Positions 3,039 to 57,945 of a DNA stretch of 64,000 nt are shown in pieces. The notes beneath the pieces were generated by a model. It worked only from the letters and a program-made list of their open reading frames with translations, ran no database searches and was not told the origin of the DNA. The stretch comes from an uncultured Rhizobium sp. Its GTDB lineage: Bacteria > Pseudomonadota > Alphaproteobacteria > Rickettsiales > UBA1997. Made by a program: the position numbers and the translations under genes. The stretch spans positions 6,033-70,032 of the forward strand of contig CAYUHG010000001.1 in NCBI GenBank assembly GCA_964444545.1. Reading direction: 5' to 3'. Position 1 is the stretch's first letter; each line of letters starts with the position of its first letter.

Positions 3039-3140
3039 ATTGTCATCCTGAGCGCAGCGAAGGATCTCGTTAGTCGAGAGCAATCTCACACTAAATCACT
3101 CTCGACTCACGAGATCCTTCGCTGCGCTCAGGATGACAAT
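3039..3140. repeat. Hairpin-forming dispersed repeat, family 1, copy 1 (perfect 31-bp outer stem plus 9-bp inner stem)
   Basis: ATTGTCATCCTGAGCGCAGCGAAGGATCTCG ... CGAGATCCTTCGCTGCGCTCAGGATGACAAT read directly. Lies in the divergent folC/porin intergenic region. Confidence 0.9.
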
Positions 3141-8846: not shown

Positions 8847-9572
8847 CTACCTTGAACTACCTTTAGAAAAAGTATTTTTTCCACCAATTTGTGATTCACG
8901 ACCAAAACGCCCATTAACAAAAGACTTGGTCTCATCATAAAGAATGCCACCTTCTGTAATTTCTCCTTTAACTCCACGCCTCTCTTGGAATTTTATAGTT
9001 ATGGGATTAGTGGTGCTAGCCTTACCAAATCCAGTTATTGAATAATCGCCATCAAATGCAGCTCCAAGATAGCCACCAATTTCTGTTTCAGGGGAAACAA
9101 TTTTGGGCAATTTTTTAAATTTTTCTTCAAAAAGTTTGACGAACTCAGTCAATAAAGAACCACCATCGATTTCACTTTTTTCCTTTAAAGACTTAAAAGT
9201 ATGTGATCGAAAATCGATTAATTTGCCATCGCAGAAAAAATCTTCTCTGTTGTTTGGGGAGAACTCAGCGGTGTGGCAACCTTCAAGAATAATTCTACCG
9301 CAAAAAGGCTTACTGCGAAAATCAGCTCTGCTAAAATCTTCATAAAATTTTTCAAAAATTTTTCGCGCCGTTTCGTTGCCTAACTCCATTTTTTTAGTAA
9401 ACATCGGATCGTTGCCGTGGCCAATTATATAAATATTGGTGTCGAAACGAATGTCTTTAGGATCTCTGATGATAGAAAAATATTTCCCCAATGTATCTAC
9501 GGTATTTTGGAGAGTTTTATCTCCTTCTTCTCTTTCAGAACCGACAACTATCAGAAAAGCTGATTTAATCAT
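8847..9572 (-). CDS. Hypothetical protein with a clan-CD-peptidase-like His-Gly / Gly-Cys dyad (function unproven)
   Basis: 241 aa with no signal peptide. Hydrophobic strand then His: NIYIIGHGN (H52). Hydrophobic strand then Cys: GRIILEGCH (C99). See findings. Confidence 0.45.
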   Translation of the reverse strand: MIKSAFLIVVGSEREEGDKTLQNTVDTLGKYFSIIRDPKDIRFDTNIYIIGHGNDPMFTKKMELGNETARKIFEKFYEDFSRADFRSKPFCGRIILEGCHTAEFSPNNREDFFCDGKLIDFRSHTFKSLKEKSEIDGGSLLTEFVKLFEEKFKKLPKIVSPETEIGGYLGAAFDGDYSITGFGKASTTNPITIKFQERRGVKGEITEGGILYDETKSFVNGRFGRESQIGGKNTFSKGSSR

Positions 9573-11072: not shown

Positions 11073-11263
11073 AAAAGATTTTTTTACTTACATTCGTACT
11101 GTTGTTATCTTCTTGTTTGTCAAAAAAAGTTGATGATCCATTGATCGTGCCACCTAATTTTGCCGACATGCCAGATGTCAACAATCCCGAAAAACCATCT
11201 GAAGAACAGAGAGACGAAAGCGTTGCTCGTCTCAAAGATCTTCTTTTGAAAAGTGATGATTAA
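11069..11263 (+). CDS. Small lipoprotein (DUF3035-like position downstream of lspA)
   Basis: 64 aa with lipobox LLSSC. ATGA overlap with the lspA stop. Pro-rich mature part. Confidence 0.55.
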   Translation: MKKIFLLTFVLLLSSCLSKKVDDPLIVPPNFADMPDVNNPEKPSEEQRDESVARLKDLLLKSDD

Positions 11264-11293
11264 CCCTATTTACTAACCTTAATTTTTTGAAAA

Positions 11294-11655: not shown

Positions 11656-11739
11656 TGTCATTCTGAGCGAAGCGAAAATATCTCTAAGCTAAGCTCAGAA
11701 ATCGACTCAAGAGATCCTTCGCTAACGTTCAGGATGACA
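11656..11739. repeat. Hairpin repeat family 1, copy 2 (decayed arms)
   Basis: TGTCATTCTGAGCGAAGCGAAAATATCTCT ... AGAGATCCTTCGCTAACGTTCAGGATGACA, with several arm mismatches. Lies between yajC and secD. Confidence 0.7.
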
Positions 11740-19152: not shown

Positions 19153-21069
19153 ATGATAAACATGACCCAAAAGTTCAAAAACTCTAAATTAAAATTAAAC
19201 GCTTTCTCAATGATCGAACTGTCGATCGTAATTTTGATCATTGGGATTTTGATCTCAGGGATTCTTGCTTCTAACGCGATTATCAAAAAGTTTAGGATTC
19301 AAACGGCGCAGACCTTAACAATTTCTTCACCAGTTCAGGGAATTCCTGATTCGGTTTTGTGGTTAGAAAGTAGTTTGGATAAAAGTTTTAAAGATTCAGA
19401 AAGTAGTGATACTACCAGTTTGAGCACCTGGTACGATGTTCGTGAGTCGGTGAATAAAAATAACGCGACTCAAAGTAATAGCGCAAATTATCCAACTTAT
19501 TCGAATTCGATTAACAGTATTCACGCCGTGAAGTTTGATGGTACAAACGGCTATTTCAGCGTTGATGGAAGTGTTCTGAACGACACGAATTATACAATTT
19601 TTGTTCTCGAACAAAGGGAAAGTAGTAAGAGTGGAAACTATTTTATCGGCGATTCTTCATCATCAAACGAATCTACAACGAATAAAAACTTAGTTCTGGG
19701 TTACAGCGCTGACGGAACGATAAAGCACTCACAATCTTCAGATAATTCTTACACCTCTTCAATTTCTTCTTACTCATCATCAAACGGAAAGCCACGTGTT
19801 TTCACGTTTGTGCACGACAAATCTGTTGGTAAGAAAACTTACATTAACGGCTTGTTAGCTGCGACTTCGACTGACACGAATAGTTTATCTGGCATGACAA
19901 CTCTTACGATTGGTAAATCATATCAAGGTCAACTTGGTGAAATTGTGATTTTTGCCCGCGCCTTGACAACTGAGGAACGTCAATCGGTTGAAGATTATTT
20001 AGGTAAGAAGTGGAACAGTAAGATTTTAAGATCAGTTGGTTCATCAGCTTCATCTGGAGGAATTGGTGGAAGCTGTGTTGGAGGAACTGTGGGTGATTCA
20101 GGATGTTTAACTGCTTGTACAGTAACCGCTGCGAATGGAATTACTGATACTACAGTTGGTGGTGGATCTGGATCTTTGATTTGCAATACCTCAGCACACT
20201 TTAGCGGTTCTCTGCCTTATACTTGTTTGAATGGGGTGTTCCAATATACCGGTACGACTTCTTGTTCTTGTGCAAGTGGTTATAATTTGGTTAGTGGAGT
20301 TTGTACCCCAATTAATCCAAGTTGTTCTGGAGGTAACACCGTTGATACCACTTCAATGAGCGGATATAAAATTCACGTATTTACCTCATCTGGAACTCTA
20401 ACTTGTACCGCTGGTGGGACTATCCAATATTTGATTGTTGCTGCTGGTGGCGGCGGCGGTTGGGGCGGTGGTGCTGGTGGTGCTGGTGGATTAATTTATA
20501 ACTCAGCAGCCACAATTTCTGCGACTTCTTATTCTATCACAGTCGGCGCTGGTAGTGGCGGCAAGGGCGGCAACTCTGTATTTAATAACATAACTGCTAT
20601 AGGCGGTGGTAATCAATGTGGTACTGGCGGTAGTGGTGGTGGCGGCGGTTATGGTTCTGGATGCTCTGGTGCTGGAACTTCTGGCCAAGGCAATGCCGGA
20701 GGTTCCTGTAACGTTACTAACAGCTGTGGTCAAGGTGGTGGTGGTGGCGGCGGTGCAGGAAGTGCAGGAAGTAACCCAGCCGGTACTTGGTCTGGTGGTA
20801 ACGGCGGTACTGGTTTATATTATGGCAACGTATTTTCTAACAACTATGGCGATAACGGTTGGTTTGCCAGCGGTGGCGGTGGTAGTGGAACTCCTTCTAA
20901 TGGTGGAACGATTGGAACTGCAAGCTCAGGCGGAGGTGGTGCTGGATCAAATTACTCTGGTGGCACAAGATATTCAGGAACCGCTAATACTGGTGGTGGT
21001 GGCGGCGGCGGAAACGGCGCCGGAACCAATGGCGGCTCTGGTATCGTGATAATTCGTTATGCTCAGTAA
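19153..21069 (+). CDS. Prepilin-type N-terminus / LamG-like / Cys-rich EGF-like / glycine-rich C-terminal domain protein
   Basis: 638 aa. Class-III signal-like KLKLNA|FSMIELSIVILIIGILISGIL (Glu at +5). LamG-like block ending GQLGEIVIFARALTTEERQSVEDYLGKKW. A 10-Cys stretch including CSCASGYNLVSGVC. Gly-rich module from YKIHVFTSSGTLTCTAGGTIQYLIVAAGGGGG to GGSGIVIIRYAQ. Confidence 0.7.
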   Translation: MINMTQKFKNSKLKLNAFSMIELSIVILIIGILISGILASNAIIKKFRIQTAQTLTISSPVQGIPDSVLWLESSLDKSFKDSESSDTTSLSTWYDVRESVNKNNATQSNSANYPTYSNSINSIHAVKFDGTNGYFSVDGSVLNDTNYTIFVLEQRESSKSGNYFIGDSSSSNESTTNKNLVLGYSADGTIKHSQSSDNSYTSSISSYSSSNGKPRVFTFVHDKSVGKKTYINGLLAATSTDTNSLSGMTTLTIGKSYQGQLGEIVIFARALTTEERQSVEDYLGKKWNSKILRSVGSSASSGGIGGSCVGGTVGDSGCLTACTVTAANGITDTTVGGGSGSLICNTSAHFSGSLPYTCLNGVFQYTGTTSCSCASGYNLVSGVCTPINPSCSGGNTVDTTSMSGYKIHVFTSSGTLTCTAGGTIQYLIVAAGGGGGWGGGAGGAGGLIYNSAATISATSYSITVGAGSGGKGGNSVFNNITAIGGGNQCGTGGSGGGGGYGSGCSGAGTSGQGNAGGSCNVTNSCGQGGGGGGGAGSAGSNPAGTWSGGNGGTGLYYGNVFSNNYGDNGWFASGGGGSGTPSNGGTIGTASSGGGGAGSNYSGGTRYSGTANTGGGGGGGNGAGTNGGSGIVIIRYAQ

Positions 21070-21634: not shown

Positions 21635-21705
21635 TGTCATCCTGAGCGTAGCGAATGATCTCGAGAGTTTGTTTTACGAGATCCTTCGCTACGCTCAGGA
21701 TAACA
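21635..21705. repeat. Hairpin repeat family 1, copy 3
   Basis: TGTCATCCTGAGCGTAGCGAATGATCTCG ... CGAGATCCTTCGCTACGCTCAGGATAACA, between convergent coq7 and ribH. Confidence 0.8.
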
Positions 21706-25081: not shown

Positions 25082-26557
25082 ATGTTTCGAATTTCTGTCA
25101 TCATTTTTTCGCTTTTAGCTCTTTGCGCTCAGGCCGCAATTCCCGACAGTTTGGATCAAATTAATGCCGATCTTTTAGCTAAAAAAGCCAAAGCCGAACC
25201 TTTTAAAGACAAGGATGTAAAAGTTGATTTAGAATCTTTGGGACTTGATGAAATTGATGCCAAAGATGCAAAAATCGCCGCTGAAAATGCTCCGGAAAAA
25301 CCAGCGCCAGTAGTTAATACCTTAACAGCTGAAGACTTACCTGATCCGAAAAAAACCGAGATCAAAAAATCGCAATTAATCGCTCCAACAAAAGAAGAAA
25401 AATCAGTAGCGCCAATCGTTACAATGGAAGATAAAATCAGAGAAGCGCGCAAAAAAATTAAAGTTGAAAGTCCAGCAACATCTAAAGCTGAAAACTCAAT
25501 CAATGATAAATCTGATAAAGATGCTCAAAAAGCTGAGTTACCGACTGAAGTTAAAGCTGCACCTGGTGTAGAAGCGGCGCCAACAGTTGTTACACCATCT
25601 GAAATTAATAAAAATTCTGAACAAAACTCAGTTGAAACAGTCGCGACTAAAAAAGAGTCAAAAGCTAAAGAGGCTTACATAAATTCTCAAAAAAAGCAGA
25701 ATCTAAAAAAACAACTCGCCGCTAAAAAAGCTGCTAAAAAGAAAGCTGAAGAAAATGAAAAGAAGCGTAAAGAGAAATTGAAAAAACTTAATCAATTACG
25801 TGAAAAATACCTTATTAAAATCAACACTGATAAGTCTTTGGATAGCAAGATTCTTGATGAAGATTTATCAGATATCGATGAAAAAATCATACCGCAAAAA
25901 AAGGATATCAATAAATTTGTATCTTACGAAAGACCAGCTCCGCCAATTTTAGATCGTTACAGAAATCGCGAAAATCAAGGAATTCCAATTGTGATCAGCA
26001 GAAAAGAGAAAGCTGATATTTTATTCAGATCAATTGGTCAGGAAGATATATCGTTCTTCAACAGCGCTTACAATGACATCGAAGATCCTAATTTACGCAA
26101 TGATGTCGGAGATACAATTTTAACTTATGCGATTCTTTTACAAAAACGAGAAGTAGTCGCATCAATTTTGGCAAGAGGAGCTGATCCTGACCTGCCAAAC
26201 AAACTAGGTTATACACCTTTGCAAATTACCCTCGAGTCTTTGGATATCGCATCTTTTAATCTCGTAGTAAATGGTGGTGCCGACATTAACGCTGTCGATG
26301 GCTTTGGCAGAACTCCTTTAATGCACGCAGCTCGTCTTGGATTTCTAGCGGCAATTGACATACTAATCAAAAAGGGAGCTGATGTAAATGCTTTGGATTA
26401 TGATGGATTTAACGCTTTAGCTATCGCCAATAAATACCAACAAGATTTGGCCGTAACTCTATTGCTTAAGAATGGCGCTAAACCTTGGGTTGAAAAACCT
26501 TACGATCCAGAATCAGAATCTTTGATTAAACAATTAGACAACAAATGGAGACGATAG
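25082..26557 (+). CDS. Secreted ankyrin-repeat protein with a Lys/Ala/Glu-rich central region
   Basis: 491 aa with signal peptide MFRISVIIFSLLALCAQA. Charged low-complexity middle. C-terminal ANK repeats (GDTILTYA..., GYTPLQIT..., GRTPLMHAARLGFLAAIDILIKKGADVNA, GFNALAIA...). Confidence 0.8.
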   Translation: MFRISVIIFSLLALCAQAAIPDSLDQINADLLAKKAKAEPFKDKDVKVDLESLGLDEIDAKDAKIAAENAPEKPAPVVNTLTAEDLPDPKKTEIKKSQLIAPTKEEKSVAPIVTMEDKIREARKKIKVESPATSKAENSINDKSDKDAQKAELPTEVKAAPGVEAAPTVVTPSEINKNSEQNSVETVATKKESKAKEAYINSQKKQNLKKQLAAKKAAKKKAEENEKKRKEKLKKLNQLREKYLIKINTDKSLDSKILDEDLSDIDEKIIPQKKDINKFVSYERPAPPILDRYRNRENQGIPIVISRKEKADILFRSIGQEDISFFNSAYNDIEDPNLRNDVGDTILTYAILLQKREVVASILARGADPDLPNKLGYTPLQITLESLDIASFNLVVNGGADINAVDGFGRTPLMHAARLGFLAAIDILIKKGADVNALDYDGFNALAIANKYQQDLAVTLLLKNGAKPWVEKPYDPESESLIKQLDNKWRR

Positions 26558-26724: not shown

Positions 26725-28314
26725 TTGTTTAAGATTAGGGTAAACAAAACCAAAAGCAGAAAATACTTCTTATTGTCTGTGTTTTTTGCCTGCGCTTCTG
26801 TCTCAGCAATATTGGTGGGAAGTCAGGCATTAATTGCACAGATTAAGAATATTTATAACGAAGATTCCGACCAAATCGCTGGCTTGAACTCTTTGATGTC
26901 AGCGGTCGCGGCTAATGACATCAGTGGTGTTAGATTCTTCAGTAAAGCTGGTGGCTCTCTCATTAATCAAAAAAATATTGGTGGTGCAACAGCACTTCAT
27001 ATAGCTGCACGCGAGAAAAATCTCGATATCACTCAAATGCTGATAGACAACGGCGCCGATGTTAACGTCGCAGATAATGAAGGCTGGACTCCACTAATGC
27101 GTGCCACAATGGCCGGATCATCTGATATAGTTGAACTTCTTTTGAATAAAAATGCCGATGCAACTGCTTTGAACTCAGTTGGCGAATCTGTTATAATTCA
27201 CGCAACTATTTCTAATTGTAATGAATGTCTGGATTTGATGTTTGAAAAGTTCAATTTCATCAAAGCTATGGATGATTCTTCTCTTAGATCACAACTCCAA
27301 GATGCATTCACAATTGCCAGAAATCATGAAAATGAAGAAATTCAAGCCACTTTAGAAAAATATCTCGATCAAGTAGTTAAGCTATCAAACCTAGTAAAAC
27401 CTCAACTTATTGTTGAAGATATTGGCGAAAAAGATATTTCGATTATTGAAGATAATAAGCTTAACCTTGTGACCAAAAATAAAGGCAACAGCAAATTTGA
27501 AGAGAAGAATTTATCTGCAGATAACAATCATATTAAAGGTAAATTTAAGTTTACCGGCGATGCTTCTGGGATTGCTTCGAGTCAAGCAGAGGATGATACG
27601 GTTTATATTATCGATAACAATAAACCATTAAAATCCAAATCAGGAATTACTGACAAAAGAAATAAGTTTGTGTTAATTGTTGGCGCATCAAAAAGCGATC
27701 CTAAAGCTACAACAGATGTAATTACTAAAACATTCAAGCCTAGTGATAGTAATGCTGTATTTTTGAAAAATTCAAAAGTTGATGATACGTCAATTACTGA
27801 TATCTTAAAAAGTAGAAAGTTCAGATTCTCACAAGGCCCTAAGAGCACGGAAGTTGTAAAGAATAACTTCAAAATCGAAGGTGCTAAGTCTGAGGAACCT
27901 AAAGCCTTAAAAACTCAGCCCGAGAATAAATCTGAAGAAACTGCTCCAATTCCTCCGATCGTAAATAGCTTTAAACTTTTAAAAGGCCCAGTTGGCAAAA
28001 AAGACGAACAGCAAAAAACAGATCAGGGAGAAGATATAACTAATAATTCTAAGGCAGTACCAGCATTCATTTTCAAAAAAGAATCAGAGATATCTTCTTA
28101 CGGTTCTATGCCATTGGTCCCAGAAAAAATCACCGCAAAGAAAGAAAGTGCCGAAATTAACAAAGCCGATTTTAAGTTATCCAAAGGAAAAACTCCGGCA
28201 TTTAAAATTTCTGATGATGCCAAAGACATCATTATTGAGAAGAAAAGTTTTAAACTAAAAAAAGGTGAAGCCACAAAATCAGAATCAGATAACTCTAATG
28301 ATGAAATGCACTAA
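26725..28314 (+). CDS. Ankyrin-repeat protein with N-terminal signal/anchor and a repetitive Lys/Ser-rich C-terminal half
   Basis: 529 aa (TTG start in the ORF track, start uncertain). Hydrophobic YFLLSVFFACASVSAILVGSQALIA. ANK repeats (GGATALHIAAREKNLDITQMLIDNGADVNV, GWTPLMRATMAGSSDIVELLLNKNAD). 7-9 copies of an F-[KRI]-[FLI]-x-x-G motif. Confidence 0.75.
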   Translation: MFKIRVNKTKSRKYFLLSVFFACASVSAILVGSQALIAQIKNIYNEDSDQIAGLNSLMSAVAANDISGVRFFSKAGGSLINQKNIGGATALHIAAREKNLDITQMLIDNGADVNVADNEGWTPLMRATMAGSSDIVELLLNKNADATALNSVGESVIIHATISNCNECLDLMFEKFNFIKAMDDSSLRSQLQDAFTIARNHENEEIQATLEKYLDQVVKLSNLVKPQLIVEDIGEKDISIIEDNKLNLVTKNKGNSKFEEKNLSADNNHIKGKFKFTGDASGIASSQAEDDTVYIIDNNKPLKSKSGITDKRNKFVLIVGASKSDPKATTDVITKTFKPSDSNAVFLKNSKVDDTSITDILKSRKFRFSQGPKSTEVVKNNFKIEGAKSEEPKALKTQPENKSEETAPIPPIVNSFKLLKGPVGKKDEQQKTDQGEDITNNSKAVPAFIFKKESEISSYGSMPLVPEKITAKKESAEINKADFKLSKGKTPAFKISDDAKDIIIEKKSFKLKKGEATKSESDNSNDEMH

Positions 28315-41225: not shown

Positions 41226-42404
41226 ATGACCACCTCTACAAAACTTCTTCCTGTTCACAAAAGATTCGATGTAACATTTTCTCACGGTGAAGGAGTTTAT
41301 TTATTTGATGAATCGGGGAAAAAATATCTCGATTTCGGCTCAGGAATTGCCGTTAATGCACTCGGTCATTGCCATCCAAAGATGGTCGCAGCGATTACTA
41401 ATCAAGCCAAAAAATTGTGGCATGTATCCAATATTTACAATGTTTCTGAACTAAATCGTTACGCAGAAAAACTGGTTAACGCCACTTTCGCCGACTACGT
41501 TTTCTTCTGCAACTCAGGTGCAGAAAGCTTGGAATGCGTAATTAAAATGATTCGTCGTCATTTTTACGTACAAAATCAACCACAGAAGCATCGTATTATA
41601 ACTTTCACTGGTGCTTTTCACGGACGCACCATCGCCACAATTTCCGCTGCCGCAAAAAAGAAATATATCGAAGGTTTTGAACCTGCTCTTCAAGGATTTG
41701 ACAACGTTGAATTTGGCAATATCGAAGCAGTAAAAAATGCCATCACCGAAAATACTGCCGGCATTTTAATTGAGCCAATTCAAGGCGAAGAAGGTATTCG
41801 AGTTTCTGATAAAAATTTCATTTTAGAATTAAGAAAACTCGCAACTGAAAAAGGGTTATTACTCGCTTTTGACGAAGTTCAATGCGGAATGGGAAGATTG
41901 GGACATCTTTTTGCTTATGATTATTACGGCGTAAAACCAGATCTTATTGCAACTGCTAAAGCCATCGCTGGTGGATTTCCTCTTGGCGCTTGCTTAGCTA
42001 CTAAAGATGCTGCAAGCGGTATGACACTTGGTGTTCATGGTACAACTTATGGTGGAAATCCTATGGCAATGGCTGTAGCCGAGTCAGTTTTAGATGTAAT
42101 GCTTGCTGATGGTTTCTTAGATAATGCTAAGAATGTTGGCGCCGAATTAAAACGTGAGCTACAAAATCTGATGCAAAAATTCCCACAAGTAATTCAAGAA
42201 ATTCGCGGCGTTGGTTTGATGCTTGGTGTTAAAATTAACGACAAAATCGAAAATACCGAAGTAGTAAAAAAACTAATCGAAGAAGGATTGTTGGTAATTC
42301 CAGCTGGTGAAAATGTAATAAGAATTATGCCACCTTTGTTGATTACGTCACAACATGTGAAAGAAGCGGTGAAAAAAATCGAGGCGGTGGTGGCTAAGTT
42401 GTAA
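41226..42404 (+). CDS. argD: Class-III aminotransferase (acetylornithine/succinyl-diaminopimelate aminotransferase-like)
   Basis: 392 aa. GSGIAVNALGHCHP, FCNSGAES, DEVQCGMGR.G, and the PLP lysine context ATAKAIAGG. Confidence 0.8.
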   Translation: MTTSTKLLPVHKRFDVTFSHGEGVYLFDESGKKYLDFGSGIAVNALGHCHPKMVAAITNQAKKLWHVSNIYNVSELNRYAEKLVNATFADYVFFCNSGAESLECVIKMIRRHFYVQNQPQKHRIITFTGAFHGRTIATISAAAKKKYIEGFEPALQGFDNVEFGNIEAVKNAITENTAGILIEPIQGEEGIRVSDKNFILELRKLATEKGLLLAFDEVQCGMGRLGHLFAYDYYGVKPDLIATAKAIAGGFPLGACLATKDAASGMTLGVHGTTYGGNPMAMAVAESVLDVMLADGFLDNAKNVGAELKRELQNLMQKFPQVIQEIRGVGLMLGVKINDKIENTEVVKKLIEEGLLVIPAGENVIRIMPPLLITSQHVKEAVKKIEAVVAKL

Positions 42405-42423
42405 TAATAGGTTCGGCGAGAAG

Positions 42424-42527
42424 AACCCCCCGACCCCTACGGGGCCACCCCCCTTGACAGGGGGGCGATGGTCCGAGTCCCGCCCCCCTGTCAAGGGTGG
42501 GGGTGGCCCCGTAGGGGTCGGGGGGTT
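42424..42527. repeat. GC-rich nested palindromic repeat, family 2, copy 1
   Basis: AACCCCCCGACCCCTACGGGGCCACCCCCCTTGACAGGGGGG - 17 nt - CCCCCCTGTCAAGGGTGGGGGTGGCCCCGTAGGGGTCGGGGGGTT, between convergent argD and dedA. Confidence 0.9.
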
Positions 42528-42530
42528 TAC

Positions 42531-43145
42531 TTAACCCCTCTTACGAGAACTAGTATAAATATAATAACCACTCACCAAAACCGCACAAACCGCAACACAG
42601 CCCAAAATAATTAAGTGAACATATTCCTTAATCAGCTCTTTATTCTCACCAATTTCATAACCCAACACCGCCAGAACAGTAGTCCAAATCAACGAACCAA
42701 CAGTAGTATAAAAACAAAACAGCTTCATATCCATTTTAGCAATCCCAGCTGGCATAGAAATAAAGTGACGAAAACCAGGTAAAAGCCTTCCAATAAAGAC
42801 TGAGATAGATCCGTGTTTTTTAAAATATTCTTCAACTTTTATGATCGTTTCTGGCTTTACGAACATATATTTTCCGATTCTAAACAAAATCGTTCTGCCA
42901 GCAAACTCGGCTAAATAATAACTAAAAATTGCACCGGCAACATTTCCTAAAGTGCCGACAAAAATAATCATAACCAAGCTCATCTGACCTTGGGAAGCGG
43001 CAATTCCGGCGGGAATTACAATCAATTCGCTTGGCAATGGAAAGGCCGTACTTTCCAAAAACATTCCAATAAAAATACCGAAGTAACCAACTTGGCTTAT
43101 GAAACTAACTAAAAAATTTATGATTGGATCAATTAATGCGTGCAT
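42531..43145 (-). CDS. DedA-family membrane protein
   Basis: 204 aa. GYFGIFIGMFLEST.FPLPSE, RLLPGFRHFISMPAGI. Confidence 0.75.
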   Translation of the reverse strand: MHALIDPIINFLVSFISQVGYFGIFIGMFLESTAFPLPSELIVIPAGIAASQGQMSLVMIIFVGTLGNVAGAIFSYYLAEFAGRTILFRIGKYMFVKPETIIKVEEYFKKHGSISVFIGRLLPGFRHFISMPAGIAKMDMKLFCFYTTVGSLIWTTVLAVLGYEIGENKELIKEYVHLIILGCVAVCAVLVSGYYIYTSSRKRG

Positions 43146-50174: not shown

Positions 50175-51326
50175 TTACAAAATTTTTAAAATTTCCTTAG
50201 CAGCTTTAAAACTAGGATTTTCAAGACTTTCCAGTCCCATTTCTTTTAAAGATGATACGCTTTCATCAAGTTGTTTTTGCGCTAAATTTTTATCGTTAAT
50301 TAATTTTTCCATCTCATGAAAAAGCAAATCTGAACGGCATTTATCCTGCAACATTTCCGGAATTATTTCACGGTTGGAAATTAAATTTATCAGATTGGCA
50401 AATTTAATTTTTACCATTCTTTTGACGATAAAATGAGTAATAAAGTTAATCTTATAAGCGATCACCATCGGCAAACGATAAAGCGAGATTTCAACTGTAT
50501 TGGTGCCCGATTTGGCAAAAGCAAAATCAGCAGCAAAAAAAGCTGAATTTTTCTCTGTTTTTTCGATTAAAAAATATGGCACTTTTAAATCTTTTGCCAT
50601 TTCAGTTACAAGATTTCGCGTTTTGTCGATCAACGGAATTATAACTTTCAAATCACGTTTTTTTTCCGCCAATAAATTTATCGCACCAATAAATTCTGGA
50701 AAAATTTTACCAACTTCACCATTACGACTTCCAGGTGTTAAAAGCACTACTGTTGAGTTCTCAGCGATTTTATATTTTGCACGAAATTCACTTCTGATTT
50801 GTGGTTTTTGCGAAAAATCAGGCGCATTTTCAACAATCGGACTGCCGATAAAAACTGTCTTCAAACCATATTTTTCAAAGTATGGCGGCTCGAATGGAAG
50901 GATTGCTAAAAGCAAATCGTAAAGCTTGGAAATTTTTTCTGCTCGACCTTCGCGATAAGCCCAGACTGATGGCGCGATCATGTGAACTTTTTTCACTGAT
51001 TTGAAATCACGCAATTTTTTCATCACACGGAAACAAAAATCTGGCGAATCAATTGTAATCACCACATCTGGCTTTTCGGACTTTACCACTTCTGCCGTTT
51101 GATTAATGCGTTTGAGCAATTTTGGAATATGCGGCAGAACTTCTAAAAATCCCATAACCGACAATTCTTCCATCGCAAAAATTGATTTTAATCCTTGTTC
51201 TTTCATCAAGGTTCCACCTACTCCGATAAACTCCGATTCGGGATTCTGCGCTTTTAATTCTTTAATCAATTTCGCTCCAAGCAAATCACCCGAAGCTTCG
51301 CCAGCGATGACGAAAAATTTTTTCAT
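50175..51326 (-). CDS. lpxB: Lipid-A-disaccharide synthase
   Basis: 383 aa. FVIAGEASGD, IDSPDF, PSVWAYREGR, SGT...E. Confidence 0.85.
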   Translation of the reverse strand: MKKFFVIAGEASGDLLGAKLIKELKAQNPESEFIGVGGTLMKEQGLKSIFAMEELSVMGFLEVLPHIPKLLKRINQTAEVVKSEKPDVVITIDSPDFCFRVMKKLRDFKSVKKVHMIAPSVWAYREGRAEKISKLYDLLLAILPFEPPYFEKYGLKTVFIGSPIVENAPDFSQKPQIRSEFRAKYKIAENSTVVLLTPGSRNGEVGKIFPEFIGAINLLAEKKRDLKVIIPLIDKTRNLVTEMAKDLKVPYFLIEKTEKNSAFFAADFAFAKSGTNTVEISLYRLPMVIAYKINFITHFIVKRMVKIKFANLINLISNREIIPEMLQDKCRSDLLFHEMEKLINDKNLAQKQLDESVSSLKEMGLESLENPSFKAAKEILKIL

Positions 51327-51406
51327 TTTTAATTTTAGATTCTTGTTTTACATTGAAGCGCGTGAACGCTGTTTCGGCTTTCGCAATTCATCACAATCTA
51401 AAATCA

Positions 51407-51419
51407 AAATCTTAAATCA
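51407..51419 (+). promoter_or_regulatory. Recurrent upstream motif AAAATCTTAAATC
   Basis: Lies 13 nt upstream of the asd ATG. TTTTAGATTCTT on the lpxB side (51333-51344) is identical to the 12-mer next to folC (3027-3038). Confidence 0.35.
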
Positions 51420-51432
51420 AAAATTAAATATT

Positions 51433-52449
51433 ATGGCTCGTCGTAAAATTGCCGTTGCTGGCGCGACCGGAAATGTTGGTCGTGAAATTTTAAATATTTT
51501 AGCAGAAAGAAAATTCCCTGCTGATGAAGTTGTTGCCTTAGCTTCTGCTAACTCTTTAGGCAAAAAAGTTTCTTACGGCGATAAGGAATTGACGGTACAA
51601 GTTTTGGATGATTACGACTTTACGGGAACATCAATTGGCCTGTTTTCTCCTGGCGGAAAAGTTTCTGCAATTCACGCTCCACGTGCTGCAGCTCAGGGTT
51701 GCGTTGTAGTTGACAATACTTCGCATTTCAGAATGGAAAAAGATATTCCGTTAGTTGTTCCTGAAGTTAATCCAGAAGCGATCGCGGATTACAAAAAACG
51801 CGGTATCATCGCCAATCCAAACTGCTCAACAATTCAAATGGTTGTAGCTTTAAAACCACTTCACGATATTGCAAAAATCAAACGTATTGTGGTTTCAACT
51901 TACCAAGCCGTTTCTGGTGCTGGTAAAGAAGCGATGGATGAACTTTACGATTCAACTAAAAAAATCTATGCTAACCAATTTTTGGAACCAAAAAAATTCA
52001 GTAAAAGAATTGCTTTCAACGTAATTCCTCAAATCGACGTTTTCATGGATGACGGCGTTACTAAAGAAGAATGGAAAATGAAAGTTGAGACCCAAAAAAT
52101 CTTGGATCCAAACATTAAAGTTGAAGCAACTTGTGTTCGTGTTCCAGTTTTCAACTGTCACTCTGAAGCGATCAACGTTGAATTTGAAAAACCAATTTCT
52201 GCCGCGCAAGCTCGCAAAATTTTGGATGAATCTGACGGCGTAGTTGTGATTGATCGTCCGCAAGAAATGAAATTTGTAACTCCAGTTGAAGTTTCAACTC
52301 AAGATCCAGTTTTCGTTTCAAGAATCCGTGAAGATAAATCAGTTGCGCATGGTCTGTCGCTTTGGGTTGTTTCTGACAACTTAAGAAAAGGTGCAGCTCT
52401 AAACGCAGTTCAAATCGCGGAGCTTTTAGTTAAGAAACACGGTTTGTAA
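51433..52449 (+). CDS. asd: Aspartate-semialdehyde dehydrogenase
   Basis: MARRKIAVAGATGNVGRE, the active-site context IANPNCSTI, and YQAVSGAG. The ORF-track start at 51106 is an antisense extension over lpxB. Confidence 0.9.
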   Translation: MARRKIAVAGATGNVGREILNILAERKFPADEVVALASANSLGKKVSYGDKELTVQVLDDYDFTGTSIGLFSPGGKVSAIHAPRAAAQGCVVVDNTSHFRMEKDIPLVVPEVNPEAIADYKKRGIIANPNCSTIQMVVALKPLHDIAKIKRIVVSTYQAVSGAGKEAMDELYDSTKKIYANQFLEPKKFSKRIAFNVIPQIDVFMDDGVTKEEWKMKVETQKILDPNIKVEATCVRVPVFNCHSEAINVEFEKPISAAQARKILDESDGVVVIDRPQEMKFVTPVEVSTQDPVFVSRIREDKSVAHGLSLWVVSDNLRKGAALNAVQIAELLVKKHGL

Positions 52450-52503
52450 AATTAGAAGAGTAGTCGAGAAACGCTAGAGGGTAAGTAAAGGAACTCTACG
52501 ATT

Positions 52504-52641
52504 GAGGGTGGCTTACTCAACCCCCCGACCCCTAGCGGGGCCACCCCCCTTGACAGGGGGGCAATGATTCGAGTCCTGCTTGCCCCCCTGTCAAGGGGGG
52601 GTGGCCCCGCTAGGGGTCGGGGGGTTGAGTAAGCCACCCTC
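52504..52641. repeat. GC-rich nested palindromic repeat, family 2, copy 2 (longer arms)
   Basis: GAGGGTGGCTTACTCAACCCCCCGACCCCTAGCGGGGCCACCCCCCTTGACAGGGGGG ... CCCCCCTGTCAAGGGGGGGTGGCCCCGCTAGGGGTCGGGGGGTTGAGTAAGCCACCCTC, between convergent asd and thiE. Confidence 0.9.
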
Positions 52642-52678
52642 GATTTGATAGTTTAGCGAACCACCATCAAATTCCTAT

Positions 52679-53308
52679 TCAAACAGATCTAATCACCGCA
52701 TCCAATTTCTTCAAAGCCTGCTCGACACCTTTCTCATTCTCCCAAACGTAAGAAATTACCGCCAAAAAATCAGCACCAGCTTCAACCAGCGTTTTACAAT
52801 TCTGAGCATTAATCCCTCCAATCGCCACAATCGGCAAATTCGTAATTTCATTAGCCCACTCTAAAATTTCCAAGGTTGGCTTGCCACGTGATTGTTTAGT
52901 TTTGCTTTCAAAAAATGCTCCGAAAGAAATATAATCAGCACTTTGCTCACCAGCTTCCATCGCCAGATGACGCGAATCGTAACAGCTTGCACCAATTACA
53001 AAATTAGGATTTATTTTTTGAGATTTTTCTCGAGCAACTTTGATTGATCCATCTTCTACACCAAGATGCACACCATCAGCACCGATCTCCAAAGCTAATT
53101 CAACATCATCATTAACAATAAATTGTGTTTTATTGGCTTGGCAGATTTTTTGTAATTCGAGGGCGATTTTTTTGACTTCTGATTTTGCGTAACCTTTCAA
53201 ACGCAGCTGGAAAACTGGAACTAATGTGGTTTTGAGGGCTTTTTCCAACTCCGCCGAAAAATCTTTTAATTCGATTTTTGGCGGGCTGATTAAATAAATT
53301 TGCGTCAT
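52679..53308 (-). CDS. thiE: Thiamine-phosphate synthase
   Basis: 209 aa TIM-barrel pattern. QLRLK, VNDDVELALEIGADGVHLG, IGASC, VAIGGI. Confidence 0.75.
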   Translation of the reverse strand: MTQIYLISPPKIELKDFSAELEKALKTTLVPVFQLRLKGYAKSEVKKIALELQKICQANKTQFIVNDDVELALEIGADGVHLGVEDGSIKVAREKSQKINPNFVIGASCYDSRHLAMEAGEQSADYISFGAFFESKTKQSRGKPTLEILEWANEITNLPIVAIGGINAQNCKTLVEAGADFLAVISYVWENEKGVEQALKKLDAVIRSV

Positions 53309-57839: not shown

Positions 57840-57850
57840 TAAATGCAAAA

Positions 57851-57931
57851 TTCCTGTCATCCTGAACAAAGTGAAGGATCTCTTGAAGATAAACTCACGA
57901 GATCCTTCACTTTGTTCAGGATGACAAGGAA
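57851..57931. repeat. Hairpin repeat family 1, copy 4
   Basis: CCTGTCATCCTGAACAAAGTGAAGGATCTC ... GAGATCCTTCACTTTGTTCAGGATGACAAGG, directly downstream of the gdh stop. Confidence 0.85.
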
Positions 57932-57945
57932 TTGGTTAAATAAGT

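Follow-up and report, generated by a model that had tools for sequence, protein, structure and literature searches.

A dispersed family of GC-rich palindromes at gene ends in an AT-rich alphaproteobacterial lineage, with the layout of a bidirectional terminator

The window analysed here, a stretch of 64,000 nt of DNA from a member of the UBA1997 group of Rickettsiales, carries two copies of a nested, GC-rich palindromic element in the gaps between convergent genes: copy 1 at 42424-42527, between argD and dedA, and copy 2 at 52504-52641, between asd and thiE. An initial annotation of the window had placed the two copies in these gaps, and coordinates and Pfam matches confirm it. The two copies are members of a dispersed palindromic family resembling repetitive extragenic palindromic (REP) elements and transposable elements of the miniature inverted-repeat type (MITEs). 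Dispersal of this kind had been suggested from the window alone, and it is now supported by a total of ~46 sites, by relatives whose orthologous sites are empty, and by one clean pair of a filled and an empty site. The reading we favour, with moderate confidence, is that of a lineage-specific family built like REPINs (inverted REP doublets that form a hairpin) and working as a bidirectional terminator and protector of transcript 3′ ends. The family is new and of a REPIN/MITE-like kind, and is no new kind of system; a literature search with the element motif and the accessions found no match.

The element is ~140 nt long and has a GC content of 0.66-0.67, compared with a mean of ~0.38 for the window. 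The window contains four occurrences of its inner motif, CCCCCCTTGACAGGGGGG, and four of its outer motif, CCCCCCGACCCCTA, one in every arm of the two copies, against 0.01-0.03 occurrences expected by chance. Consistent with the earlier description of GC-rich copies with a largely identical core, alignment of the two GC cores reveals differences at only three places: a small hairpin differs in its loop, the central loops are unlike, and one G-run is interrupted. The small-hairpin loop is TAC in copy 1 and TAGC in copy 2, and the difference is mirrored in the opposite arm (CCCCTACGGGG/CCCCGTAGGGG in copy 1, CCCCTAGCGGGG/CCCCGCTAGGGG in copy 2). A search with the family's covariance model, run with filters off, found no third copy in the window.

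With its outer arms included, copy 1 spans 42408-42545 (match to covariance model R1 at 42404-42547, 132 bits). Alignment to the consensus places a degenerate left outer arm, TAGGTTCGGCGAGAAG, at 42408-42423, beginning 4 nt past the argD stop codon. The left GC arm (42424-42465) reads AACCCCCC-GA-(CCCC TAC GGGG)-CCA-(CCCCCC TTGACA GGGGGG) and contains two sub-hairpins, a small one at 42434-42444 and an inner one at 42448-42465. The central loop, CGATGGTCCGAGTCCCG, which belongs to loop class B, occupies 42466-42482. It is followed by the right GC arm (42483-42527; inner hairpin 42483-42500, small hairpin 42507-42517), which mirrors the left arm except for an additional T that breaks a G-run, and by a right outer arm or T-rich tail, TACTTAACCCCTCTTACG, at 42528-42545, which holds the last codons and the stop codon (42531-42533) of dedA. 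Copy 2 (52504-52641; covariance model R1 at 52499-52646, 124 bits; also detected as inverted repeat I1) is a perfect palindrome except for its loop. Its left outer arm, GAGGGTGGCTTACTC, lies at 52504-52518 by consensus alignment; its left GC arm at 52519-52561, with small hairpin CCCCTAGCGGGG at 52529-52540 and inner hairpin at 52544-52561; its central loop, CAATGATTCGAGTCCTGCTTG, at 52562-52582; its right GC arm at 52583-52626, with inner hairpin at 52583-52600 and small hairpin CCCCGCTAGGGG at 52605-52616; and its right outer arm, GAGTAAGCCACCCTC, at 52627-52641. The left outer arm of copy 2 had been taken for part of an extra 18-bp outer stem, and that stem is the normal outer arm of the family; it is the version in copy 1, overlapping the end of dedA, that is degenerate. 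The claim that the element fills the whole convergent gap holds for copy 1, where the gap is 126 nt, and fails for copy 2, which takes up 138 of 229 nt.

RNA folding predicts a single long hairpin for each copy: that of copy 1 has a free energy of -109.7 kcal/mol (z -10.9), and that of copy 2 reaches -151.9 kcal/mol (z -17.5). The predicted fold is equally strong on both strands of both copies. The proposal that the G-runs form a quadruplex fared less well: no G-quadruplex motif with loops of up to 7 nt is present, and relaxing the loops to 12 nt yields one motif per copy, on the + strand. Quadruplex formation is judged unlikely, since all G-runs pair with C-runs within a hairpin of very high stability.

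Evidence for a dispersed family came from a metagenome scan with a subfamily-specific arm pattern, AACCCCCCGACCCC-N(2-8)-GGGGCCACCCCC. The window was matched to contig JACCED010372051.1 of a metagenome assembly, and the scan returned 46 metagenome loci, drawn from the series of that contig (accessions beginning JACCD or JACCE) and from a second project, OFDC01, which represents a sister population with 90-94% DNA identity at overlapping loci. De-duplication by flanking sequence left 56 unique arms. A covariance model built from 17 copies recognized ~32 unique full-length and ~14 partial copies at ~46 distinct sites, all but 2-3 of them intergenic. The same model found no match in ~72 kb of four relatives or in the loci of the Rickettsiales E06 metagenome-assembled genome (MAG), and a scan for the C/G-run element found none in L181 or L182 (L-numbers are labels of retrieved loci or contigs).

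Long palindromes can be suspected of arising during assembly or sequencing, for example as fold-back chimeras at a GC-rich hairpin. Contigs do often break in the element: in five of six independent contigs with identical ArgD the contig end falls inside it, and 13 of 15 whole-contig loci terminate within a copy. One copy, L144 14091-14233, has flanks that are perfectly symmetric up to the contig end; these flanks were set aside as most likely an assembly fold-back at the palindrome. Against an artefact, the element is found with unique, non-palindromic flanks in independent assemblies and samples, and dozens of copies lie between different genes. For the window copies this explanation is refuted, and its overall probability is negligible.

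Across the family, the outer arm is weakly conserved (consensus tGAGTTyGGcTaaAgAAA) and the GC arm, ~43 nt long, is nearly invariant, with the order CCCCCC-GA-(small hairpin)-CCA-CCCCCC-TTGACA-GGGGGG. The central loop of 15-21 nt is the least conserved part, with at least three sequence classes and with both orientations represented. Hardly any variation is seen at the junctions AAA|CCCCCC and GGGGGG|TTT, and AAA occupies positions -3 to -1 in 47-56 of the 56 arms. The outer-arm motif M might have been a repeat in its own right that received the GC core as an insertion; 30 of its 39 matches are element-associated, and a few M-like sequences occur in the centres of a second palindrome family described below. 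The inner-hairpin loop varies within the family (TTAACA, TTGGCA, TTATCA). A role for TTGACA in a promoter was considered and rejected: there is no -10-like hexamer at 16-18 nt, a promoter scan is empty at the elements, and matches in the region do not exceed those in shuffled sequence.

The initial annotation had described the differences between arms as compensatory, and the larger sample supports this: the mirrored small-hairpin difference is real, and arm co-variation exceeds both shuffles and permutations. In the 17-copy alignment, 97.7% of stem cells are paired. Two-sided changes affect nine cells, which belong to four pairs; shuffled alignments give 3.0 such cells, and none of 500 shuffles and no slid control reached nine. 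In 11 of 15 copies the two arms agree in their small-hairpin loop, which none of 20,000 permutations reached. Among 23 copies, arms differ from the consensus by 124 edits and from each other by 59, and in one copy (L157_8323) each arm has five changes, every one of which is mirrored in the other. The small hairpin occurs with six different stems (CCCC, CCC, CTC, CTCGC/GCGAG, CTCTC/GAGAG and CCCGC/GCGGG), and in some copies the two arms carry different stems, such that the local hairpin is kept and the long hairpin is not. Mirrored changes and stem swaps together indicate maintenance at two levels, that of the long palindrome and that of the local sub-hairpins. Mirrored change could reflect selection on pairing, palindromic master copies, or correction of one arm by the other, and the pattern is the same for all three; mirrored arm changes by themselves are thus no proof of selection on RNA structure.

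Two further observations concern variation among copies. L157 10801-10896 and L167 3428-3566 represent one genomic site in two samples, with flanks 99.5% identical; between them the central loop is inverted and the small-hairpin loop is TAC in one and TGC in the other, which could mean that the loop has flipped, that one copy has converted another, or that the assembly path ran through a different copy. At L138 ~2340-2400, an outer-arm-like palindrome, GAGTTTGTTTAAAGAAA-CTCCTCGAGG-TTAGCTAAACAAACTC, adjoins a full element and has no GC core; it may represent either a copy that has decayed or a "core-less" version of the element.

In relatives, both window sites are element-free. The gene order COQ9-argD-dedA-gmk, with argD and dedA convergent, is retained in relatives with 93, 90 and 89% ArgD identity, and their argD-dedA spacers, of 58, 47 and 111 nt, respectively, contain no G/C-run element. 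The spacer of the 93% relative instead holds two small, opposite-facing hairpins with T-runs. At a second site, L129 is filled, and L156, from the sister population and 93% identical in its flanks, carries an AT-rich stem of 17 bp whose T-rich tail follows it and which scores as terminator-like. At asd-thiE, three relatives have a gene for a 216-aa GNAT acetyltransferase between the two genes (L181 2548-3198, L182 4627-5277, and L123 from 20776). This gene has been lost from asd-thiE in the window lineage, where the element lies in a 229-nt spacer (52450-52678); no remnant of the GNAT gene was found near copy 2. The clean filled/empty pair comes from L119, a MAG that is a family-level relative (~76% DNA identity over syntenic stretches) and carries a simpler element, lacking the small hairpin, between gene ends. 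Compared with L136, the second copy in L119 has inserted cleanly: ATCATTATT and ATTATTATT flank an insert of ~116 nt, and a single ATCATTATT is present at the empty site.

The anatomy of the element is what points to a role at transcript ends. Three-prime tails, counted on both strands, contain a mean of 4.9 T per 8 nt, compared with 2.45 expected, and 37 of 58 tails have at least five. Where a gene lies within 400 nt of an element side, the side faces the gene's 3′ end in 44 cases and its 5′ end in 23, and sites with genes on both sides comprise 15 tandem, seven convergent and two divergent arrangements. Stop codons lie a median of ~23 nt from the GC core, which means that they abut the outer arm or sit in it. 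An open reading frame (ORF) that runs into the consensus element from either side meets a stop codon whatever its frame, and copy 1 scored as terminator-like on both strands. A bidirectional terminator had been proposed for the two window copies, and family-wide the predicted design is borne out by the conserved AAA, GC hairpin and TTT order, by the T-rich tails, and by two-thirds of sides lying at 3′ ends.

Intrinsic terminators share with the element an A-tract, a GC-rich hairpin, a T-tract and a location between convergent or tandem genes. Their stems are usually 5-15 bp, however, whereas that of the element is ~45 bp; in addition, the element recurs with near-identical sequence at dozens of sites, and some copies have poor T-tails or face gene starts. 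Given the layout of A-rich arm, GC hairpin and T-rich tail, bidirectional termination combined with 3′-end protection is the most likely role. Transcription of either strand would produce a very stable GC hairpin of ~45 bp followed by a U-rich tail, and the working role would be that of a bidirectional intrinsic terminator and a 3′-end protecting hairpin. The element would replace the ordinary terminator hairpins of sister lineages, with its outer arms and loop supplying stops in three frames. The family as a whole would be a lineage-specific, non-autonomous repeat that has spread to several dozen sites, mostly just past stop codons. Termination and RNA stabilization are read here from the anatomy of the element.

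Several observations weigh against this reading. The tails of copy 2 (TTGAGTAAG, 3 T in 8) are the weakest in the family. Two copies lie in frame inside genes: one (L145 2121-2244) within an ORF for a Methyltransf_28 (MidA-like) protein, in which the Pfam match runs as one stretch across the insert, and the other (L135 1327-1466, equivalent to L152 and with an orthologue in L174) in the linker of a two-domain, duplicated ABC ATPase. These two copies, together with the third of sides that face gene starts, mean that location is not strictly terminator-like, and such placement fits a selfish element tolerated where it inserted. The co-variation rests on few columns, since 28 of 42 stem pairs never vary. 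Finally, the copy count derives from loci chosen for carrying the element, such that any genome-wide density is an extrapolation; individual contigs have about one copy per 15-60 kb.

The evidence on mobilization falls on the same side. The family would have been spread by an enzyme acting in trans, yet there is no consistent target duplication at any symmetric boundary offset, no REP-associated tyrosine transposase (RAYT) or other transposase among 49 non-redundant ORFs within 700 nt of elements (10 checked by Pfam, the rest judged by eye to be housekeeping genes), and no transposase among the window ORFs. The Pfam matches among the unclear element-adjacent ORFs were HIT, phytochelatin synthase, DciA, MlaC, DUF3750, LpxI, SPOR and PEBP. 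Clustering of 2,755 ORFs from 160 loci revealed no recurrent neighbour family beyond ubiquitous families and spurious ORFs derived from the repeat itself. A RAYT, suggested earlier as a cognate enzyme to look for, was thus found neither near copies nor in the window, and none recurs across the 160 loci. The GATT that flanks copy 2 on both sides had been put forward as a 4-bp target duplication; it is present there and is not found family-wide, no symmetric offset exceeds chance, and in the absence of a general flanking duplication it is most likely coincidental. The best 9-mer match between flanks is 6.80 for true pairs and 6.69 for mismatched-pair controls, and exact flank repeats of at least 6 nt occur in 14 of 30 true pairs compared with 28% of controls, a weak excess. 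There are two candidates for a 9-bp duplication, L119 1704, which is backed by the empty site, and L158. A single-strand, hairpin-recognizing enzyme of the HUH/RAYT type is one possible mover, and a DDE transposase making ~9-bp duplications is another. A phage vector was considered and set aside as doubtful, the hairpin being present in only six viral contigs.

A rival explanation takes the family to be purely selfish DNA, copied by some enzyme. The bias toward gene ends would then arise because other insertions are lethal in a compact genome, and the A/T flanks would be a target preference or the element's own ends. In addition to the two in-frame copies and the 23 of 67 sides at gene 5′ ends, this account is helped by truncated, deleted and decayed copies (L133 4721, L130, L159 and L161), by the gain or loss seen between L119 and L136, and by the weak T-tails of copy 2. 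It is harder to reconcile with a GC core that is near-invariant among copies and populations despite 6-10% divergence of the flanks, which suggests constraint or continuing homogenization, with an element that sits exactly where sister lineages have ordinary terminators, and with tails that contain twice the background of T. A purely selfish family is therefore a possibility that we regard as doubtful. Selfish origin and co-option are mutually compatible.

An alternative function at the RNA level, as a structured non-coding RNA gene or a cis-regulatory RNA (tRNA-like, an RNase III target, or a small RNA), is largely refuted and is given very little credence. The folds are extremely stable, and the class B loop resembles a tRNA T-arm (GG-TCCGAGT-CC; GGTTCGAGTCC in L133 and L144). 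However, the element falls below every gathering score in Rfam 15, with sub-threshold matches to generic hairpin models (microRNA precursors), and conservation is lowest in the central loop, which is found in either orientation. Because both strands fold equally well, no direction of transcription is defined. The tRNA-like loop was itself rejected as a candidate, with no RF00005 match even at E values up to 10 and no ARAGORN call; the only Rfam matches above gathering score in the window are two tRNA-Leu genes, located elsewhere than the element.

Among known systems, REPINs are the closest match in construction and behaviour. In a REPIN, two inverted REPs separated by a variable spacer form a hairpin, and one Pseudomonas REPIN class is flanked by conserved A's and T's and has been read as co-opted terminators (PMC3337134). 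REP dimers and intragenic REPs have also been described (PMC3733652). As in REPINs, REPs and bacterial interspersed mosaic elements (BIMEs), which are mobilized by RAYTs related to the Y1/HUH transposases of IS200/IS605 insertion sequences (ISs), the element is an inverted doublet of short hairpin units around a variable spacer that together make one long hairpin: ~43-nt GC arms are mirrored around a loop of 15-21 nt, each unit is itself a short palindrome, and copies are dispersed and extragenic. The likeness extends to tens to hundreds of extragenic copies, A/T flanks, singlets, deletion derivatives and occasional intragenic copies, and to the lack of obvious terminal inverted repeats of the DDE-transposon kind. 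In contrast to REPINs, the element has no conserved GTAG or CGTC tag (GTAG/CTAC occurs in six of 32 copies, all TAC-loop variants, and CGTC/GACG in 1-2 of 32), showed no RAYT among the ORFs beside its copies, contains two C/G-run sub-hairpins per unit, and is 66% GC in a 38% GC genome. The possible 9-bp duplication at one related copy, in L119, is likewise something that RAYT/IS200-type transposition would not make. Since the tag is not conserved and no RAYT was identified near copies, in the window or across the 160 loci, the element is not filed under the REP-RAYT system.

Other palindromic elements share some of these features. Rickettsia palindromic elements (RPEs) also occur in AT-rich alphaproteobacterial hosts as palindromes of ~100-150 nt, with in-frame copies in open genes. 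RPEs are not known to be rich in G/C-runs. The element differs from them in having no CGTC end and in lying mostly at gene 3′ ends with T-rich tails, and no sequence similarity to RPEs was detected by a tag check or by the covariance model on Rickettsiales MAG loci. No dedicated transposase is known for the element or for RPEs, of which RPE-4 and RPE-6 count as CGTC-type REPs (PMC3733652). Like bacterial MITEs, the element is short, non-autonomous and intergenic, has inverted symmetry, can affect transcript ends, and shows presence/absence polymorphism. Bacterial MITEs include the Correia elements of Neisseria, RUP, BOX and ERIC, and classical MITEs have terminal inverted repeats that match an IS and a fixed target duplication. 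Neither of these is established for the element: no transposase ORF was found in ~160 element loci or in the window, and the outer arms are only weakly conserved. A looser parallel comes from the AT-rich mitochondrial genomes of fungi, which contain GC clusters and double-hairpin elements. These too are short, mobile, GC-rich palindromes in an AT-rich genome, often nested and with alternative hairpins, although the hosts are organellar and no sequence relationship is known, and the comparison is offered as an analogy only.

The most interesting lead is the recurrence of the inner hairpin across phyla. A scan of one genome per species for CCCCCCTTGACAGGGGGG (18 nt) found at least 114 loci (L007-L120). 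Among the matches listed, an ACCCCC run lies upstream (AACCCCCC) in 124 of 143 hairpins, from 53 MAGs of many phyla that include several sponge symbionts. Among these same listed matches, run and hairpin are 3-7 nt apart in one class, made up of Nitrospinota, Poribacteria, sponge-associated MAGs, Deltaproteobacteria and others. In a second class, comprising Cloacimonadota, soil Burkholderiales and Caldisericales, they are separated by 17-22 nt that include a small hairpin; the window element, with a spacer of 16-17 nt, falls into the second class. Many of the listed MAGs are multi-copy, often with mirrored doublets. Since the matches were chosen by their hairpin, independent evidence comes only from the upstream run, the multi-copy state and over-representation. 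The shared module could stem from common descent through horizontal transfer or from convergent evolution of a stable C6/G6 hairpin. A more specific proposal, which we advance tentatively and consider unlikely on balance, is that AACCCCCC and CCCCCC-TTGACA-GGGGGG define one widely transferred superfamily of non-autonomous palindromes, served by one conserved enzyme or host factor, diversifying by gain of modules such as the small hairpin of the window subfamily, and GC-rich because the hairpin itself is copied or selected. Its proposed hosts are Nitrospinota, Poribacteria and other sponge MAGs, Cloacimonadota, soil Burkholderiales, Deltaproteobacteria, bacteria of the candidate phyla radiation, and AT-rich Alphaproteobacteria.

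The same recurrence bears on the idea that the element functions as DNA, by cruciform extrusion or by binding a host protein, as a chromosome organizer or a pause site for recombination or replication, with CCCCCCTTGACAGGGGGG as the binding site. REP and BIME elements bind gyrase, IHF and Pol I. A conserved protein would fit the presence, among the matches listed, of a hairpin with the same loop and the upstream AACCCCCC in so many MAGs (124 of 143 hairpins, 53 MAGs), and the small hairpin is retained even when the arms differ. The mirrored changes would fit upkeep of a DNA palindrome as well as they fit RNA pairing. However, no candidate protein emerged, the clustering of ORFs over 160 loci giving no recurrent neighbour that is not ubiquitous, and neither the T-rich tails nor the gene-end location is explained. 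The variation of the inner loop within the family indicates that recognition specific to TTGACA is not strict. We consider a DNA-level function improbable, and the bidirectional terminator and 3′-end protector remains the preferred reading for the window family.

The genes around the two copies converge on them. Upstream of copy 1 is a class-III aminotransferase gene, ArgD-like (41226-42404, + strand; Pfam PF00202, E 8e-119), whose 3′ end points toward the element; on the other side, the gene for a DedA/VTT-domain protein (42531-43145, - strand; PF09335) has its 3′ end within the right outer arm, and the C-terminus of this DedA is unlike that of the 93% relative. Copy 2 is faced by the 3′ ends of an aspartate-semialdehyde dehydrogenase (Asd) ORF (51106-52449, + strand; PF01118/PF02774) and the thiamine-phosphate synthase (ThiE) gene (52679-53308, - strand; PF02581). 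The Asd ORF, at 447 aa, overlaps the divergent lpxB ORF (50175-51326). Asd is 338 aa in relatives and in a gene call on the same contig, so the true start is probably ~330 nt downstream of 51106.

The nearest named homologues of window proteins are from MAGs of Alphaproteobacteria, Pelagibacterales and Rickettsiales, and the gene content includes dnaA and genes for lipopolysaccharide and the cell envelope. Two adjacent ankyrin-repeat proteins (25082-26557 and 26725-28314) hint at a host-associated lifestyle. A glycine-rich repeat protein (19153-21069; Pfam Gly_rich_2) is encoded by GGT/GGC-rich, tandem-like repeats, with local GC up to 0.48. A 396-aa ORF at 29556-30746 matches only HHH_6 and an OB-fold (tRNA_anti-codon); it resembles a stand-alone C-terminal part of the DNA polymerase III alpha subunit and may be a split or truncated dnaE.

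The window also contains a second palindromic family (TGTCATCCTGAGCGnAGCGAAGGATCTCG and its mirror), unrelated to the GC-rich one, at 3039-3140, 11656-11723, 21635-21705 and 57848-57933, one copy of which abuts tRNA-Leu(gag). Further copies are present at L125 ~11195-11280, L123 ~20683-20707, L145 ~9272-9372 and L162 ~2655-2685, and variants occur in relatives, including the argD-dedA spacer of the 89% relative. Its centre sometimes holds a GAGTTyGG-like motif that is shared with the outer arm and loop of the GC-rich family. Homology between the two families (TGTCATCCTGAGCG and following) was considered on the basis of a covariance-model score of 55 bits and rejected, the alignment being structural only.

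The GC-rich family explains why assemblies break at particular gene ends, and is a clear bacterial case of GC-rich palindromes persisting in an AT-rich genome. The element can change protein C-termini, as in DedA, and can even sit within proteins. On the terminator reading, it would show how conventional terminators can give way to a ready-made, mobile stop signal that works in both directions and carries stop codons of its own. If the cross-phylum hairpins do share common descent, they would point to an unrecognized, horizontally transferred class of small mobile DNA and to an enzyme that moves it.

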